Translations under genes and position numbers: made by a program
Virus record (IMG/VR): IMGVR_UViG_3300027805_000007
Direction: 5' to 3' (one strand)
Length of the DNA: 36,586 nucleotides
Source of the DNA: an uncultured virus (IMG/VR IMGVR_UViG_3300027805_000007)
Taxonomy: Duplodnaviria; Heunggongvirae; Uroviricota; Caudoviricetes
Part shown: in pieces, positions 4,183-15,798 of the stretch
Layout of the letters: every line of letters begins with the position of its first letter
Numbering within the stretch: position 1 is the stretch's first letter
The notes under the pieces: generated by a model
Databases searched by the model: none
What the model was told of the DNA's origin: nothing
What the model saw: only the letters and a program-made list of their open reading frames with translations

Positions 4183-4947
4183 ATGCTTTTAGAAAACCTT
4201 ACAATACCAGCACCAGCACCAGGACCAGCCGATTGGAATGATGACGGCTTTGTAATTAAAAAAGGGCTGTTGCCAGAAGACTTAATGCAACAATATGAAC
4301 AATGCTGGATTGAACACAACCCAGAGCGACCTGGTGGATGGCCTGATTGTACTCCGTACCGTCGTCACCCAGAAGTGCTGAATATCCTTACCTATCACGC
4401 AATTAATGACACGATGGAACAATTGATTGGCGAACCTGCCGCTGTTCACTTGAATCTTACTGGTTGGGTCACTACTCGCCGCAACTGGCATCAAGACACT
4501 TATTTGAATCCTGCACACGTCGGTGACTACTACGTAGCAATTTGGATTGCTCTTGAAACTATTCATCCAGATTCTGGACCATTTCAGTTTGTTCGTGGTT
4601 CACATCGTTGGCCTGTTGTTACACGAGAAAAGATCCTTGAAGCGTTAGAGCCAGAAGAACGTGATCATCGTTGGCCTAAGTACAGCGAGCGACTGCTCAC
4701 ACCATTGTTTGAAGCAGAGATTGAAAAGCGTAACGCTGAAGTAATTACTTACTTGCCAGAACGTGGTGACGTTTTGTTTTGGCATGGTCGTTTGCTACAC
4801 CGTGGTTCAGAACCTAATATTCCTGGTATGCCACGCAAATCATTGATTGCTCACTACTCAGGTATTAACCATCGCCAAGACATGCCAACAGCAGTACAAC
4901 ATGGTGCTGGTTGGTATTTCCCAATTGAGGGTGGGAATACAGAGTGA
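4183..4947 (+). CDS. PhyH-family 2-oxoglutarate/Fe(II) dioxygenase
   Basis: WHQD facial-triad motif, VAIWIALE...GPFQFVRGSHRW, GDVLFWHGRLLHRGSEP...R. Confidence 0.9.
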   Translation: MLLENLTIPAPAPGPADWNDDGFVIKKGLLPEDLMQQYEQCWIEHNPERPGGWPDCTPYRRHPEVLNILTYHAINDTMEQLIGEPAAVHLNLTGWVTTRRNWHQDTYLNPAHVGDYYVAIWIALETIHPDSGPFQFVRGSHRWPVVTREKILEALEPEERDHRWPKYSERLLTPLFEAEIEKRNAEVITYLPERGDVLFWHGRLLHRGSEPNIPGMPRKSLIAHYSGINHRQDMPTAVQHGAGWYFPIEGGNTE

Positions 4948-5525
4948 AACTACTTAACGCAGGTTGTGGAACACATTACGCACAAGGGTGGGTAAACGTT
5001 GATGTTTGGGAATCAGACACAACAAAACCAGATGTTGTTGTAAAACCAGGTGAACCATACCCATTTGATGACAACACATTTGATGCTGCCTACTTAGGAC
5101 ATGTTATTGAGCACATTCCTTGGAATGATGTGCCTAAGTTCCTTACAGATATTTCAAGAGTTGTAAAACCGAACGCACCAATACTTGTAGTCGGTCCAGA
5201 CGTTTATAAAACAATAAAGAGATGGAAAGACGGTCAGGAACCGTTTTGGATGATTGAGTCTGTTCTAGAACATATGGACATGAACTGGCAACCTGAGCGT
5301 ACTCATGAGTGGTGGGATGGTGCACATCATCATTGGAACTGCCATGAGCAACGTGTAGAGAAGTTGCTGGACAAATGTGGTTTCTTAGACATTCGCAATG
5401 TTTATGAGGATATTCCGAATGATCCCAACGGTTTGTCATGGTTTGATAGTACAACAAACATCACATGGCCTGTGGTTGGTAAATACTTCTGGCAACTAGC
5501 GTTTAGTTGTAAGAACCCTATTTAA
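4944..5525 (+). CDS. Class I SAM-dependent methyltransferase (Methyltransf_11-like)
   Basis: LLNAGCG..., PFDDNTFDAAYLGHVIEHI...RVVKP; GTGA overlap with the dioxygenase gene. Confidence 0.85.
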   Translation: MKLLNAGCGTHYAQGWVNVDVWESDTTKPDVVVKPGEPYPFDDNTFDAAYLGHVIEHIPWNDVPKFLTDISRVVKPNAPILVVGPDVYKTIKRWKDGQEPFWMIESVLEHMDMNWQPERTHEWWDGAHHHWNCHEQRVEKLLDKCGFLDIRNVYEDIPNDPNGLSWFDSTTNITWPVVGKYFWQLAFSCKNPI

Positions 5526-6126
5526 TCCAAATACCCACACGCTCTGCTTCTGCACCGTCATCACTGACAAAGGTGTAGCCATCTGGCATCGGATCTGGTT
5601 CGTCAAACCATACTGGAACCATGCAAGTGTTACCGTACACAAAGTCAGGATTGCCTCTTAAATGTACCTCTATGAGGTTGCCGTCAATAAACTCACAGTT
5701 TATGGTTTTGTATCTAGTGACTAAGTGTTTCAAGAAACTAGGTAGCGGGTAAGTCTTAGCAACCTTCTCCCAGTAAACAAACCTGCTGTATGGGCGTTCT
5801 GCATGCTTAATGCCAACAACAGACAACACTGGTTCGCCTAATTCGTAATCAATGCTTAGATGCTCACCTGTAAACACCTCACACCAGAACTCACCTGGAT
5901 GTAGATGGTTTGTGTTGTGGGTAAGATGCTCAACACGTGCTTTAGTTCCCATGCCATTGATATTCATGACTGGTTTAACGAAATAGTCGTTAGGGGTTGG
6001 GACTGTCACGCCCGTGGGACCACAAAGGTGTCCAGCACGTCTTGCAACAATTAATTTATCAAAGACCCATAAGTCTTCGTCAGATACATTCCCAACCCAC
6101 GCAATAGCGTCTGGGGGTGGGCGCAT
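5518..6126 (-). CDS. ATP-grasp-like phage protein
   Basis: FDKL...YFVKPVMNINGMG...FWCEVFTGEHLSIDY...INCEFIDGNLIEVHLRGNPDF. The start is probably ATG 6126, just after the upstream stop. Confidence 0.6.
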   Translation of the reverse strand: MRPPPDAIAWVGNVSDEDLWVFDKLIVARRAGHLCGPTGVTVPTPNDYFVKPVMNINGMGTKARVEHLTHNTNHLHPGEFWCEVFTGEHLSIDYELGEPVLSVVGIKHAERPYSRFVYWEKVAKTYPLPSFLKHLVTRYKTINCEFIDGNLIEVHLRGNPDFVYGNTCMVPVWFDEPDPMPDGYTFVSDDGAEAERVGIWIK

Positions 6127-6127
6127 A

Positions 6128-6364
6128 CTATTCTTCTTTACTAATGACTCCAAAAGCAGAATCAATGTCTTCAGCGCTTAGATCACCGTCAGCAAGATAC
6201 AACCGAGCCAATCGCTCTACAACTGTGGCAACTCCACCAATACCAGCCATCATTATGGCTTTCCAGAGTTCAACTCCTGCAATGGTACCAGCACCGACAA
6301 CACCTAGTCCAGTGGCGGCAAATGCCGCAAGGATACGTAGAAATACATGTTTTAGTTTCTTCAT
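6128..6364 (-). CDS. Small membrane protein (holin-like)
   Basis: Two hydrophobic Gly/Ala-rich helices and an acidic tail; TATAAT 6 nt upstream. Confidence 0.65.
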   Translation of the reverse strand: MKKLKHVFLRILAAFAATGLGVVGAGTIAGVELWKAIMMAGIGGVATVVERLARLYLADGDLSAEDIDSAFGVISKEE

Positions 6365-8880: not shown

Positions 8881-9533
8881 TCCATACCTGGTAGCCGTGG
8901 CTGATCAAACTTTGGTGCAGGTGCGTCTTGAGGTGTGCGACCACGACCAAGAACTTGTCGTAAAAACTGTTTACCACGCATAACATCACTTTTAGGGATA
9001 AGAGTCTCGCCTGGATAAGGGTCACGTCCCATTTTATACATGTCAGGGTCAGTTGAATATAAAGCATGAGTGTCTGTTGTTGATGCGTCTACGTTAGATG
9101 GGTGAGGTTGTACTAGTCCTTTAGCAATACCATGTTTGGCTAATTTAGAAGAATCTTGTGTTAAAGCATGATCTGATACAAAGTCAGTATCTGGGTGATC
9201 TTGTTTAGCAATTGCTAATAATGTTGGAATATGTTGACGCATTGTTGGGTTTGCGTAAGCGCCAGAGATTCTGGCACGTGCTCTAGTGCTTTTAAACAAT
9301 TCTGTTGCAGGTTCTGGGGTATCTGCGCTGAAGTCGTTAGGCGTATGTGACTCATCATTAACATGCGATATCTCTACTTGAGCATAAGGGTACCCACCAG
9401 ACCACATGCGTGCAATACCTTTATCAGGTGAGTAGTTGTCACTTACGGCTCTGTATGTCTTCCATGTAGGGTGATGACCGTATTCATCCGTTACATATTG
9501 CAACTTGTCGTTTGTGCGGTAATACTGAGCCAT
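8877..9533 (-). CDS. Hypothetical protein, possible degenerate GNAT fold; C-terminus DQPRLPGME
   Basis: RISGAYANPTMR..IPTLL...SDHALTQDSSKL pattern is only weakly GNAT-like. Confidence 0.6.
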   Translation of the reverse strand: MAQYYRTNDKLQYVTDEYGHHPTWKTYRAVSDNYSPDKGIARMWSGGYPYAQVEISHVNDESHTPNDFSADTPEPATELFKSTRARARISGAYANPTMRQHIPTLLAIAKQDHPDTDFVSDHALTQDSSKLAKHGIAKGLVQPHPSNVDASTTDTHALYSTDPDMYKMGRDPYPGETLIPKSDVMRGKQFLRQVLGRGRTPQDAPAPKFDQPRLPGME

Positions 9534-12614: not shown

Positions 12615-13001
12615 TTACTCTACTTCAAGTACATTCTCTGGAGGGATGTGACCCCAGTGCATTGCTGAACCTGTTTGCCGAAGGCTATTCTTCCAGTCAC
12701 TAGAATCGTCAGTACGTAGTTTAGATTCATCAAAATTTCTATTTACACTTGTGTGTACAGGATCCTCAAAGGAGTTCCAGTCTACTTGAAGGTTTCTTGG
12801 GTTCACACGAACTTTTACGATTGCTGGGTCTTTGTGCATGCTGGCGTAGTGTTCAGCCAATTCACGATCAGGTGTTACATAAACATTGGGCTTACCGAGT
12901 CCTGTACGTGCCCCTAGACCATCTGCTTTGATATTTGTGGCATTTTCTTTTGAAGTCCCATGGTACATATGCATGTGGAATTGATCGGGACTGAGAGCCA
13001 T
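12615..13001 (-). CDS. ADP-ribosyltransferase / Tpt1-like fold protein
   Basis: MYHGTSKENATNIKADGL...VYVTPDRELAEHYA...AIVKV...GHIPPENV; N-terminus MALSPDQF. Confidence 0.7.
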   Translation of the reverse strand: MALSPDQFHMHMYHGTSKENATNIKADGLGARTGLGKPNVYVTPDRELAEHYASMHKDPAIVKVRVNPRNLQVDWNSFEDPVHTSVNRNFDESKLRTDDSSDWKNSLRQTGSAMHWGHIPPENVLEVE

Positions 13002-13018
13002 AAATCAAGTATAGATGG

Positions 13019-13420
13019 TTACTGTTTAGACTGTTCGTTTTCTCGGTGTGTATGAGCAGGGAGACGCTCTGATTGAGCCTCTTTGGGTGTTCCATAGGTA
13101 ATTGGAACAAACATGGTCGGGTCAATGTCATGTGCGGCTGCAACACGGTGATAACCGTTGCGGATCCCTAATTCACGTCCCTCTACCCCGACACGGACAG
13201 GATTGACGATTCCTTCACGTTGCACGCTCTTATAGATGCCTGAGTCGTAGGCTTCGTCGCTTTTACGGTTCCAGAACGATTCATCTTCAGAAACTTGACG
13301 ACCTGCACGGGTTTGTGTAGGAGCATCTGCTGTAGTCATCTCACGAGGGTGGATTGGCATGTCACGGAGCATTTTTACAGGCATGAACAACTGACCGTTG
13401 AGGTGGTGCCATGATGCCAT
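13019..13420 (-). CDS. ParB/Srx-like single-domain protein
   Basis: IYKSVQREGIVNPVRV...IRNGYHRVAAAHDIDP; N-terminus MASWHHLNGQLF. Confidence 0.75.
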   Translation of the reverse strand: MASWHHLNGQLFMPVKMLRDMPIHPREMTTADAPTQTRAGRQVSEDESFWNRKSDEAYDSGIYKSVQREGIVNPVRVGVEGRELGIRNGYHRVAAAHDIDPTMFVPITYGTPKEAQSERLPAHTHRENEQSKQ

Positions 13421-13437
13421 ATTTCAAGTATAGAGGG

Positions 13438-13695
13438 TTACTTGTGACGCAAAGCGGCTTTAATGACTCCCGCTTTTTTATCCGCAATACCCTCGGGACC
13501 AGCATCACGCTCTGAACGGTAGCGGTTGACATTATTTTGCATACTTTGCGCTAGTTCTTCCCGTGGAATGGAGTGATGCGTGGAGGTTTTGGGGTCACGT
13601 ATAGACAATTCGTAGTCAACAATCTTGTTAACAAGACGTGGCGTGGGGCGATAAATAATAGCCCTGAACTGGTCAATGTTTACCTTGTCTTGCAT
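13438..13695 (-). CDS. Hypothetical protein
   Basis: First gene of the leftward arm; N-terminus MQDKVNIDQF; TATACT 6 nt upstream. Confidence 0.65.
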   Translation of the reverse strand: MQDKVNIDQFRAIIYRPTPRLVNKIVDYELSIRDPKTSTHHSIPREELAQSMQNNVNRYRSERDAGPEGIADKKAGVIKAALRHK

Positions 13696-13797
13696 AAAAC
13701 AAGTATAGGGCTATTTGGGCGAGGTGGGTGGTCGGTCGGATTTTTGAATGGGGCTATCTGGTAGTGGAGCGTTGGGTGGGGCCTCTCTCCTACCCCC

Positions 13798-13811
13798 CGA
13801 ACACCCGTTCG
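13798..13811. promoter_or_regulatory. LexA SOS box (Gram-positive/actinobacterial type)
   Basis: CGAAC-ACCC-GTTCG, a perfect match to CGAAC-N4-GTTCG. Confidence 0.65.
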
Positions 13812-13834
13812 CCCCCGCTTAACCATGGGGGTAC

Positions 13835-13931
13835 TTATCCACAGGGTACTCCATACCCCATAAGGGTTTGCTGGGTTATCCACAGCCCCCCCTGTGGATA
13901 TCCTGTGGATACTGTGGAACATTGTGGAACA
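13835..13931. promoter_or_regulatory. Cluster of six DnaA-box-like 9-mers
   Basis: TTATCCACA at 13835 and 13876 (perfect). Reverse copies: TGTGGATAT 13893, TGTGGATAC 13904, TGTGGAACA 13913 and 13923. Confidence 0.75.
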
Positions 13932-13970
13932 TTGGGTTAGGGGCGCCTAACACCCGTAAGGCTCACCTAA
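13932..13970. promoter_or_regulatory. Two tandem IdeR/DtxR-like boxes
   Basis: TTGGGTTAGGGGCGCCTAA and ACCCGTAAGGCTCACCTAA, each 14/19 to TWAGGTWAGSCTWACCTWA, 20 bp apart. Confidence 0.5.
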
Positions 13971-13972
13971 CA

Positions 13973-14020
13973 TGTGACGATCGTCACACTCATTGTTACA
14001 ATGTCGTGACATTCGTCACA
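13973..14020. promoter_or_regulatory. Two CRP/GlxR-type boxes
   Basis: TGTGA-CGATCG-TCACA (13973-13988, perfect) and CGTGA-CATTCG-TCACA (14005-14020). Confidence 0.7.
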
Positions 14021-14421
14021 AAGCCTTGACAAGCCCCCACCTCATATGCCCTCGCTTCAGGATGCGTTCTAAGAGGAGCAGGGGCGTTTTCAAGTAAATA
14101 TGCATTTTCAGGAATTAAACGCTTCCTGAGGCTTCTGATCAACCTAGAAATGGGGCTATGAGCCTTACTGGGTAAGGGTTTGCGGGGTATCGGTAGGTAT
14201 ATAAGACCCTCCACAATCGCCCCAGTTGCTATCAACCTCCTCCCGTCTCAAAATCGCCCTACGCCTCTCAGAACGGCTCCTAATGCGTCTCAGGGCATTT
14301 CCCAGTATTCATTGGAAACCTGCATTTCCTCCCTCTCTACTCCCTCCATCCGATGGATGGCTGTCGCTTTGGGCGCCCTTTTCCAGCCCTCTGACCGCCG
14401 ATCCCCCGCTGGAGGAGGCTC

Positions 14422-14483
14422 AAAAGAATTTAAAGAAATTGTTCAGAAACTATTGACAGATGTACACCCCATGTGCCTATGCT
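14422..14483 (+). promoter_or_regulatory. Candidate early promoter (A-rich UP tract, TTGACA, TATGCT)
   Basis: TTGACA at 14453-14458 and TATGCT at 14478-14483; the 19-nt spacer is atypical. Confidence 0.4.
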
Positions 14484-14539
14484 GGGGGTGGAGGCGCTAG
14501 TCCCCTCCGCAGGTTCCTTGACAAGTGGCAGGTACGGCA

Positions 14540-14563
14540 CGCAGGCTTCGCCCTGCGCTTTTT
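14540..14563 (+). terminator. Hairpin plus U-tract (possible attenuator/terminator in the early leader)
   Basis: CGCAGG-CTTCGC-CCTGCG-CTTTTT. Confidence 0.45.
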
Positions 14564-14604
14564 GCGTTCCTGCCCTCAGAATCAAACATGGTTCAAAATT
14601 CCTC

Positions 14605-14738
14605 AGCGTCACGGGCGGGCTTCGGCTTGCTCGTGGCGCTCAATGAGCGCTGGGGACACTCCCCCTGCTCCAGCGCTGATTGAGCGTCACACACGCTCCG
14701 ATGGCACACAGCCTTCGCAGTCCTGAGGAGGACACACC
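14605..14738 (+). repeat. Structured intergenic element type B (tandem long hairpins plus SD hairpin)
   Basis: AGCGTCACGGGCGGGC-TTCG-GCTTGCTCGTGGCGCT; second stem at 14637-14686; GTCC-TGAGGA-GGAC. Confidence 0.7.
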
Positions 14739-15164
14739 ATGAACATCAAAGATGAGCAATTCAGCAACTTGATCAAGTACAACGATCACGGTCAGGCTCA
14801 ATACAGCCCTGAGGCTGTAGCACTTCGCTTCGCTGGAATCTTGGCTGACATCACCAAGCGCAAGGCTTCATCGGCAGACCGAGCACTATGGGCTTCAGTC
14901 CCTCAGATCGGCGCCGATGCCAAGCGCTTGGACATCGTCAAGGACTTCAGCATTCGCTGTGCCGAAAAGGGATACATCAGTGACCTACTCGGTTACGGGG
15001 ATCTTGGCGGGCAGGTCGGCGTTGTCACGGAAGTGCGGGAGATCCGCAAGCGTGACGGTCGTACGGCGGTGGATGTTGAGATCGTTTTCTTCAACCACAC
15101 GACTATTGGCAAGTACCGCAGTGACTCAGCCAAACGGCGCAAGTTGCAATTCATCAAGGGCTGA
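14739..15164 (+). CDS. Hypothetical protein
   Basis: GAGGAGG SD, ATG start. Confidence 0.85.
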   Translation: MNIKDEQFSNLIKYNDHGQAQYSPEAVALRFAGILADITKRKASSADRALWASVPQIGADAKRLDIVKDFSIRCAEKGYISDLLGYGDLGGQVGVVTEVREIRKRDGRTAVDVEIVFFNHTTIGKYRSDSAKRRKLQFIKG

Positions 15165-15788: not shown

Positions 15789-15798
15789 TTGAGTTCTT

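Follow-up and report, generated by a model that had tools for sequence, protein, structure and literature searches.

We analyzed a 36,586-nucleotide stretch of DNA from an uncultured virus of the Caudoviricetes (IMG/VR record IMGVR_UViG_3300027805_000007; this whole stretch is referred to as the window), in which a tract at 13791–14020 had been interpreted, from the letters alone, as a run of binding sites for four host master regulators (LexA, DnaA, IdeR/DtxR and CRP/GlxR). We found that this tract is the left half of a master control region and that it contains a cassette of five or six DnaA boxes and one LexA box, which is specific for one subgroup of related phages (group A). As judged by sequence comparison, the cassette sites are real, non-random and conserved, and they correspond to DnaA and LexA sites found on the chromosomes of aquatic Actinobacteria. 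The cassette is located between an anchor element present in the whole phage family and family-specific palindromic operators that overlap a promoter-like element. Thus, the DnaA and LexA parts of the four-regulator interpretation were upheld, but the IdeR and CRP parts were not.

Relatives of the window were retrieved with the anchor, CTACCCCC-N20-CTTAACCATGGGGG, an element independent of the sites under question. A search for the exact pattern yielded 24 IMG/VR loci and 25 metagenome loci, and these 49 further loci included members of all three subgroups described below. Together with the window they made 50 sequences, two of which were too short; 31 were distinct and fell into group A (15 distinct sequences including the window), group B (8 distinct sequences plus L036) and group C (7 distinct sequences). 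Counts for promoter elements are based on an alignment of 9 distinct group A sequences. Chance occurrence was estimated from 300 dinucleotide shuffles of the 36.6-kb window. In addition, a 90.8-kb composite genome was built from the window and record G001, which represents the same phage, has one end at window position 15790, is 100% identical to window positions 15790–36586 and extends past the window end; the control region is not covered by G001. The sister subgroups served as natural controls, since they have the same backbone without the cassette (group B) or with a single DnaA box (group C). Group B sequences had neither the DnaA array nor the LexA box and contained up to five GTGAC palindromes, often one of them inside the anchor loop. 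In group C, GTTGCA-N2-TGCAAC palindromes replaced the GTGAC ones, and one perfect DnaA box was present; in 4 of the 5 loci shown, a conserved ATTGTTATGACAT element begins 7–9 nt downstream of this box.

The DnaA array is composed of two sets of boxes facing each other. Boxes 1 and 2 (13835..13884, + strand; starts at 13835 and 13876, 41 bp start to start) are perfect copies of TTATCCACA(G), the only perfect boxes in the 90.8-kb composite. Boxes 3–6 (13893..13931, − strand) abut head-to-tail and correspond to TGTGGATAT at 13893, TGTGGATAC at 13904 and TGTGGAACA at 13913 and 13923, with starts 11, 9 and 10 bp apart. Relative to the 9-mer TTATCCACA, two of the six boxes are perfect, two have one mismatch and two have two mismatches, and TCCACA is kept in all six. 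None of the 300 shuffles contained four DnaA boxes with one mismatch or less in a span of 110 bp, and none contained six TCCACA cores in such a span, the largest number seen being four. Boxes 1, 2, 4, 5 and 6 were kept in all 15 distinct group A sequences while their flanks varied, and box 3 was intact in the window only. Conservation extended to the whole 9-mer and was not limited to GTGG. The six DnaA-like boxes proposed at 13835–13931 are therefore present, beyond chance and conserved (five of them in 15/15), and on this sequence evidence we regard them as very probably genuine DnaA sites.

The array resembles those at the replication origins (oriC) of aquatic Actinobacteria. Abutting tandem boxes were also found in the dnaA-dnaN spacer of a metagenome-assembled genome (MAG) of the Micrococcales, and 16 nt of them are identical to phage boxes 4–5. 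A genome-wide pattern scan revealed paired TTATCCACAG boxes at 73 loci; the actinobacterial pairs were located at dnaA/dnaN in three genomes and between rplI and dnaB in Pontimonas and Nocardia, the latter location being a non-origin, regulatory-type setting. As a separate observation, the TTATCCACAG pair with a spacing of ~44 bp recurred in Pontimonas/Microbacteriaceae MAGs and Nocardia (L048, L051, L057, L064, L068, L072, L081, L088, L097 and L061). In the two loci checked (L048 and L061), it was found between rplI and the replicative helicase gene dnaB, suggesting DnaA control of dnaB.

The LexA SOS box CGAAC-ACCC-GTTCG (CGAACACCCGTTCG, 13798..13811) is located within the anchor loop (designated position 1), and no second perfect copy exists in the 90.8 kb. 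Of the 300 shuffled 36.6-kb sequences, 7 contained one or more perfect LexA palindromes. When one mismatch was allowed, 14 of the 15 distinct group A sequences had the box, which was perfect in 11 of them; it was detected in none of the 16 group B/C sequences. Across group A, the arms were conserved and seven different N4 spacers were observed. The box occupied either position 1, in three registers of the anchor loop, or position 2, 6–8 nt past DnaA box 6, and thus always adjoined the DnaA array, on one side or the other. A case of turnover was seen in L037, in which the position 1 copy had decayed and the position 2 copy was perfect. We also examined the regions upstream of lexA in aquatic actinobacterial MAGs and detected TCGAAC-N4-GTTCGA-type boxes in 4 of 4; no lexA match was obtained in a fifth genome. 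Unlike the phage boxes, these boxes carry an outer T and A. The LexA site proposed at 13798 is thus present, unique and maintained in group A, and we regard it with good confidence as a genuine LexA site. According to the shuffle counts, the DnaA and LexA parts of the tract are far above chance, the CRP-like pair modestly so, and the IdeR-like pair not at all.

The other palindromes of the tract were less consistent with their initial assignments. Two TTAGG-N4-CCTAA palindromes (13937..13970), TTAGGGGCGCCTAA at 13937 and TAAGGCTCACCTAA at 13957, had been described as 14/19 matches to the IdeR/DtxR box. Both palindromes are present, but only the first matches the 19-bp IdeR consensus at 14/19 positions; the second matches at 13/19, and matches of equal or better quality, including one of 15/19, occur elsewhere in the 90.8-kb composite. 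Of the 300 shuffles, 97 had one or more matches with five or fewer mismatches. Conservation was limited to the inner 14-bp palindrome TTAGGGGCGCCTAA (8 of 15 distinct group A sequences), the left flank of the 19-bp unit being variable, and the second copy was present in the window only. We rejected the IdeR/DtxR identity because the matches are at background level, the 19-bp unit is not conserved and the second copy is restricted to the window. The proposed derepression of host iron uptake via IdeR found no support. TTAGGGGCGCCTAA fills the position 2 slot whenever the LexA box is in the anchor loop.

The second pair, TGTGACGATCGTCACA at 13973 and CGTGACATTCGTCACA at 14005, had been assigned to CRP/GlxR, and both sequences were confirmed. 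They form two TGTGAC-N4-GTCACA operators (13973–13988 and 14005–14020) around an extended -10-like element TGTTACAAT (13994–14002), and the whole unit (13973..14020, + strand), with a promoter-like match GTGACG-17-TACAAT with TG, is a candidate repressible rightward promoter; its promoter status is uncertain because the final base of the -10-like hexamer varies among relatives. If these palindromes were host CRP/GlxR sites, three host regulators would act on the region. The first copy is a perfect TGTGA-N6-TCACA and the second has one mismatch, and the sites are kept in groups A and B, as a CRP/GlxR role would have it. However, 47 of 300 shuffles contained one or more perfect sites by chance (and 9 of 300 a pair, with at most one mismatch, in a span of 110 bp), and several features of the family make this explanation rather unlikely. 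Positions 6 and 11 of the conserved unit, TGTGAC-N4-GTCACA, are always C and G, a stricter pattern than the CRP consensus; groups A and B have 2–5 tandem copies that extend over the -35-like element and the presumed start, as in the layout of a repressor; group B places one copy inside the anchor loop; and group C, which lacks the GTGAC operators, uses a different palindrome. Because of these features, the pattern suits a dedicated operator better than a global regulator. A perfect GTGAC palindrome was found nowhere else in 90.8 kb. Overall, the palindromes initially read as IdeR and CRP sites are probably operators of other regulators, which are probably phage-encoded. We looked for such regulators among the small early open reading frames (ORFs), none of which had a helix-turn-helix match above threshold. 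In a search for a regulator co-varying with the operator type, the O-like replication initiator of the phage was considered as a general binder of the operators and was rejected, because it has no clear homolog in group C and the group C initiator-gene iterons, GGTCAC-CA-GTGACC, are unlike the intergenic palindromes of that group. In groups A and B, in which the initiator was found at 85% (A) and 50% and 50% (B) identity, it could contact the GTGAC sites.

According to ORF maps, transcription diverges at a single place in the composite and in each of four complete relatives (91–97 kb), namely at the control region (13696..14459), a 764-bp gap that could be aligned to relatives over its full length. 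The tract is non-coding, as the flanking genes start at 13695 (− strand) and 14739 (+ strand) and the alignment of relatives has indels that are not multiples of three. The proteins encoded in the window include two WhiB proteins, DUF932, DUF6011 and an SNF2 helicase, and the composite codes for a contractile tail, portal, capsid, terminase, PolA, RecA, primase, a DnaB-like helicase, a DnaC-like loader and the O-like initiator. The closest matches of the terminase were in Streptomyces phages such as BRock (46% identity), and WhiB matches in the ESM Atlas had only Actinomycetota or viruses as their taxonomy. The two WhiB genes and the terminase bear out the actinobacterial setting assumed at the outset. 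No integrase or partition genes or domains were found among ORFs of about 90 amino acids or more. The phage is a ~95-kb myophage of low-GC freshwater Actinobacteria and is probably virulent. Parts of the stretch were present only in lake and other freshwater or aquatic metagenomes, from several studies.

Among the three functional ideas offered with the original interpretation (a decoy or sponge, integration of host-state signals, and coating of the DNA with host proteins), integration of host-state signals for phage transcription ranked first. Input of the host state to the divergent early promoters is the most likely function of the cassette, although we would place it somewhat below an even chance. 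According to this model, host DnaA and LexA would load onto incoming phage DNA, and the two inputs would couple the divergent early promoters to the replication and DNA-damage state of the host. LexA would damp expression until RecA is activated, with the phage's own recA as a possible built-in timer, and a cooperative DnaA oligomer would modulate the same divergent promoters. The location of the cassette at the only divergence point of the genome, with small genes on either side, and the presence of a phage RecA support such a regulatory role, as do the single DnaA box of group C, the group B phages that have the same replication genes but no cassette, the lambda-type origin candidate in the initiator gene and the convergent arrangement in T5 (the last two described below). 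On the other hand, several observations weigh against it. No recognizable -35/-10 elements overlap either LexA position; the distances of position 1 to the leftward start and to the candidate rightward start are ~110 bp and ~200 bp, respectively, and position 2 is ~60 bp upstream of the latter. The DnaA array and the candidate starts are separated by 80–240 bp, a long distance for simple occlusion, and several relatives lack the final T of the -10-like hexamer located between the operators. That the LexA box can adjoin the array on either side would be explained equally well by a joint nucleoprotein complex and by transcription control. Finally, the designation of the phage as virulent has as its sole basis the lack of integrase and partition domains in ORFs of the size given above.

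Several known systems resemble this arrangement. In T5-like phages, eight conserved DnaA boxes in the non-coding injection-stop region have been described and argued not to be an origin (Davison, bioRxiv 10.1101/866236), and the available text of this preprint contains no occurrence of LexA or SOS. No paper in the literature collection searched joined bacteriophage T5, LexA and DnaA, and no actinophage DnaA array appeared among the titles listed by a search on the subject. We inspected the T5 genome (L166, NC_005859). Its divergent pre-early intergenic region has perfect DnaA boxes at 6121 and 6194 and an SOS-like box at 6211, and its injection-stop region has an SOS box at 9409 (19/20 relative to the consensus) followed by four DnaA boxes from 9437 (9437–9510). 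In both regions (6121–6230 and 9409–9518), a near-consensus SOS box is 8 nt from a DnaA box, a gap that parallels the 6–8 nt of position 2 in group A. As in the phage studied here, the T5 cluster is in non-coding DNA between early genes and away from the replication origin. The two phages differ in family, host phylum and LexA consensus, which are unrelated; moreover, the T5 boxes are in pairs 3 bp apart inside long inverted repeats (IRC/IRD) in the terminal repeat, whereas in the phage studied here two spaced boxes face four abutting ones at the single divergence point of the genome. Adjacency of DnaA and LexA sites thus occurs in two unrelated virulent phages, each with the LexA consensus of its host. 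We tentatively suggest that a DnaA array with an adjacent LexA box might be a convergently evolved module of virulent phages, a host-state switch without lysogeny that reads or captures the replication-stress sensors of the host.

Partial parallels were also found outside T5. The E. coli uvrB promoter region, described as co-regulated by LexA and DnaA (PMC6015884), likewise combines LexA boxes and several DnaA boxes in one promoter region and reads damage and replication status, but it belongs to a host repair gene and not to a phage. In phage GIL01, host LexA is reported to bind SOS boxes in the early promoter region (PMC4551915, PMC6182141); that phage is temperate and its boxes overlap promoter P1, whereas no lysogeny genes and no recognizable promoter overlap were found here. 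The CtrA sites described in phages of Alphaproteobacteria, with the term "lytic deferment" (PMC9437464), are similar in that phage promoters read a cell-cycle master regulator of the host, and different in the regulator, the host and the fact that these phages often have their own CtrA.

Other functions of the cassette were weighed against host-state input. As a sponge or decoy, the five or six boxes on amplified phage DNA would titrate host DnaA in the manner of datA and block new rounds of host replication, and the LexA box would aid SOS derepression. E. coli datA and the DnaA-box clusters of B. subtilis contain several high-affinity boxes without an unwinding element, and they are chromosomal and act on initiation in the cell's own cycle. 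The phage array resembles them in having high-affinity boxes and no adjoining unwinding element, its two perfect boxes and cooperative tandem boxes being the architecture of strong chromosomal DnaA-binding clusters, and differs in being phage-borne; to our knowledge, there is no example of a phage-borne cluster of this type. Titration of DnaA by chromosomal boxes is an established concept (PMC12371093, PMC5835720). However, a sponge would not need the LexA box to stay by the array, nor the cassette to stay by the operators, and group B phages manage without the cassette. In group C, a single DnaA box is present at a fixed place by a conserved element and is therefore not a sponge there. With one box per genome, a sponge is a weak explanation for LexA, though a possible one for DnaA, and as a whole we consider it fairly unlikely. 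A function in DNA entry, as proposed for T5, would have DnaA, which is largely membrane-associated, and LexA catch the first-entering DNA and pause or anchor injection or protect the DNA. The conserved boxes in the T5 injection-stop region, the DnaA-membrane stop model put forward for T5-like phages in the preprint (10.1101/866236) and the 8-nt spacing of the T5 SOS and DnaA boxes are in line with this, and the tract is likewise repeat-rich, non-coding and between early genes. Yet the T5 model is itself only a proposal, the box arrangement differs as described above, and nothing indicates which end of the phage genome enters first; two relatives assembled with end overlaps, as circular or permuted genomes do. 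We consider an entry function very improbable. It could also be argued that the boxes are not DnaA sites and that the four tandem repeats are bound by a phage protein or by the host division regulator MraZ. The targets of MraZ are GTGG-type direct repeats that recur about every 10 bp, and the four tandem TGTGGA repeats have a period of 9–11 bp. This explanation is highly improbable in view of the two invariant perfect 9-mers in opposite orientation 41 bp apart, the conservation of the full 9-mer instead of GTGG alone, and the occurrence of the same tandem layout in a dnaA-dnaN spacer.

A role in replication was considered separately. The DnaA array is probably not the main origin. In phage lambda, the origin lies within gene O, and a corresponding layout was found in the O-like initiator gene of the phage studied here. 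In this phage and three group A/B relatives, the gene contains 5–8 iterons with a GTGAC core and, after them, an AT-rich stretch; the initiator gene of group C has four of its own iterons and likewise an AT-rich stretch, and such elements were thus present in all 5 genomes examined. The lambda-type origin candidate (L042:1800–1960, composite ~52.88–53.0 kb, outside the window) is similar to the lambda origin in having iterons and an AT-rich stretch inside the initiator gene, and the DnaA array is ~39 kb away from it. Beside the array, whose flanks are the GC-rich anchor or operators, there was no conserved AT-rich unwinding element; the only AT-rich stretch nearby (14090–14124) is not conserved. 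Cumulative GC skew in the four complete relatives showed no consistent extremum. Furthermore, group B phages without DnaA boxes have the same replication module at 40–73% identity. An origin role was ranked low because of the lambda layout, the absence of a conserved AT-rich neighbor and the retention of replication genes in group B. The array might still be an auxiliary oriC-like origin, in which host DnaA opens the DNA, the phage DnaB-like helicase and DnaC-like loader are recruited, and LexA licenses firing. The converging box arrays do resemble the DnaA-assembly region of oriC, the phage has DnaB-like, DnaC-like, primase and PolA proteins, and there are plasmid and phage origins that join initiator sites with DnaA boxes (P1 oriR, pSC101). 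The same four observations (no conserved unwinding element, a lambda-type origin elsewhere, group B and the GC skew) speak against an auxiliary origin as well, and we consider it quite improbable.

Additional elements were identified in and around the control region. A leftward promoter block (13702..13760, − strand) contains a -10-like TATACT (13707–13702) and RATRGGGCTAY repeats at 13705 and 13748. It was nearly invariant in 9 of 9 distinct group A sequences despite a differing downstream gene, was seen in all three subgroups, and is inferred from its sequence to act as a promoter. The leftward mRNA is probably leaderless, since TATACT ends 6 nt before the ATG at 13695. A third RATRGGGCTAY copy is present at 14150; the copies are conserved in all subgroups and are probably another family of protein-binding sites. 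The anchor (13790..13831) is an inverted repeat of a C-tract and a G-tract with a variable loop, and this loop is a hot spot that contains a LexA box or a GTGAC palindrome depending on the subgroup. Inspection by eye showed no convincing -10 element or T-run, and the anchor was rejected as a promoter or terminator. The CsoR-like TACCCCATAAGGGTT listed among the weaker initial candidates is present, but at 13855 and not 13854. The inverted repeat TCAGGAA-N8-TTCCTGA was found at 14108..14129 as described, and relatives have different inverted repeats at the same alignment position, suggesting a conserved hairpin. Two additional elements conserved in group A were the palindrome CCATCCGATGGATGG at 14346–14360, which is invariant, and the repeat TAAGGGTTTGC, which occurs twice (13861 and 14173).

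On the right side, a canonical promoter candidate (14453..14483, + strand) was recognized from TTGACA (14453–14458), a 19-nt spacer and TATGCT (14478–14483). The TTGACA -35 and an nAnnnT -10 were kept in 8 of 9 distinct group A sequences; the promoter tool, which allowed spacers of 16–18 only, missed it. Between this candidate and the first rightward gene (ATG at 14739), relatives hardly differed over a stretch of ~250 nt (14486..14738, + strand), in which the lengths of indels were not divisible by three. A conserved structure was predicted for it from 8 sequences, with 63 pairs, 9 of which had compensatory changes. A search of the region against Rfam gave only a sub-threshold mir-610 match and no credible family, and the predicted structure is probably a new structured 5' leader or small RNA. 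In a freshwater metatranscriptome, a 245-nt contig was identical to 13794–14038, with a word depth of 7.2 compared to 2.3–3.4 for three coding contigs over neighboring genes; this evidence consists of contigs whose strand and ends are unreadable, and DNA carry-over is possible.

Small genes flank the control region on both sides, and PHROGs and Pfam gave no function for them. A DNA search of 13000–15000 against 50,697 phage records yielded zero matches, a tRNA search found none, no sequencing run contained half of the sampled words, and five MAG genomes searched against the tract shared only matches the size of a DnaA box. Within the leftward block of genes, a + strand island (4183–5525) codes for a PhyH-type dioxygenase and a methyltransferase; it is common to the window and its relative G002 and is not found in groups B and C.

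For practical use, the DnaA and LexA assignments are well supported, and the IdeR and CRP assignments are best not carried forward. The usual picture of a virulent phage is that of a fixed program, and a conserved DnaA/LexA docking cassette at the single early control region would mean that this phage senses or manipulates the replication and damage state of its host. If the regulatory interpretation is true, such a phage could decide whether and when to launch its early program. The presence of the same pairing in T5 suggests a general principle, which is testable in a model system.

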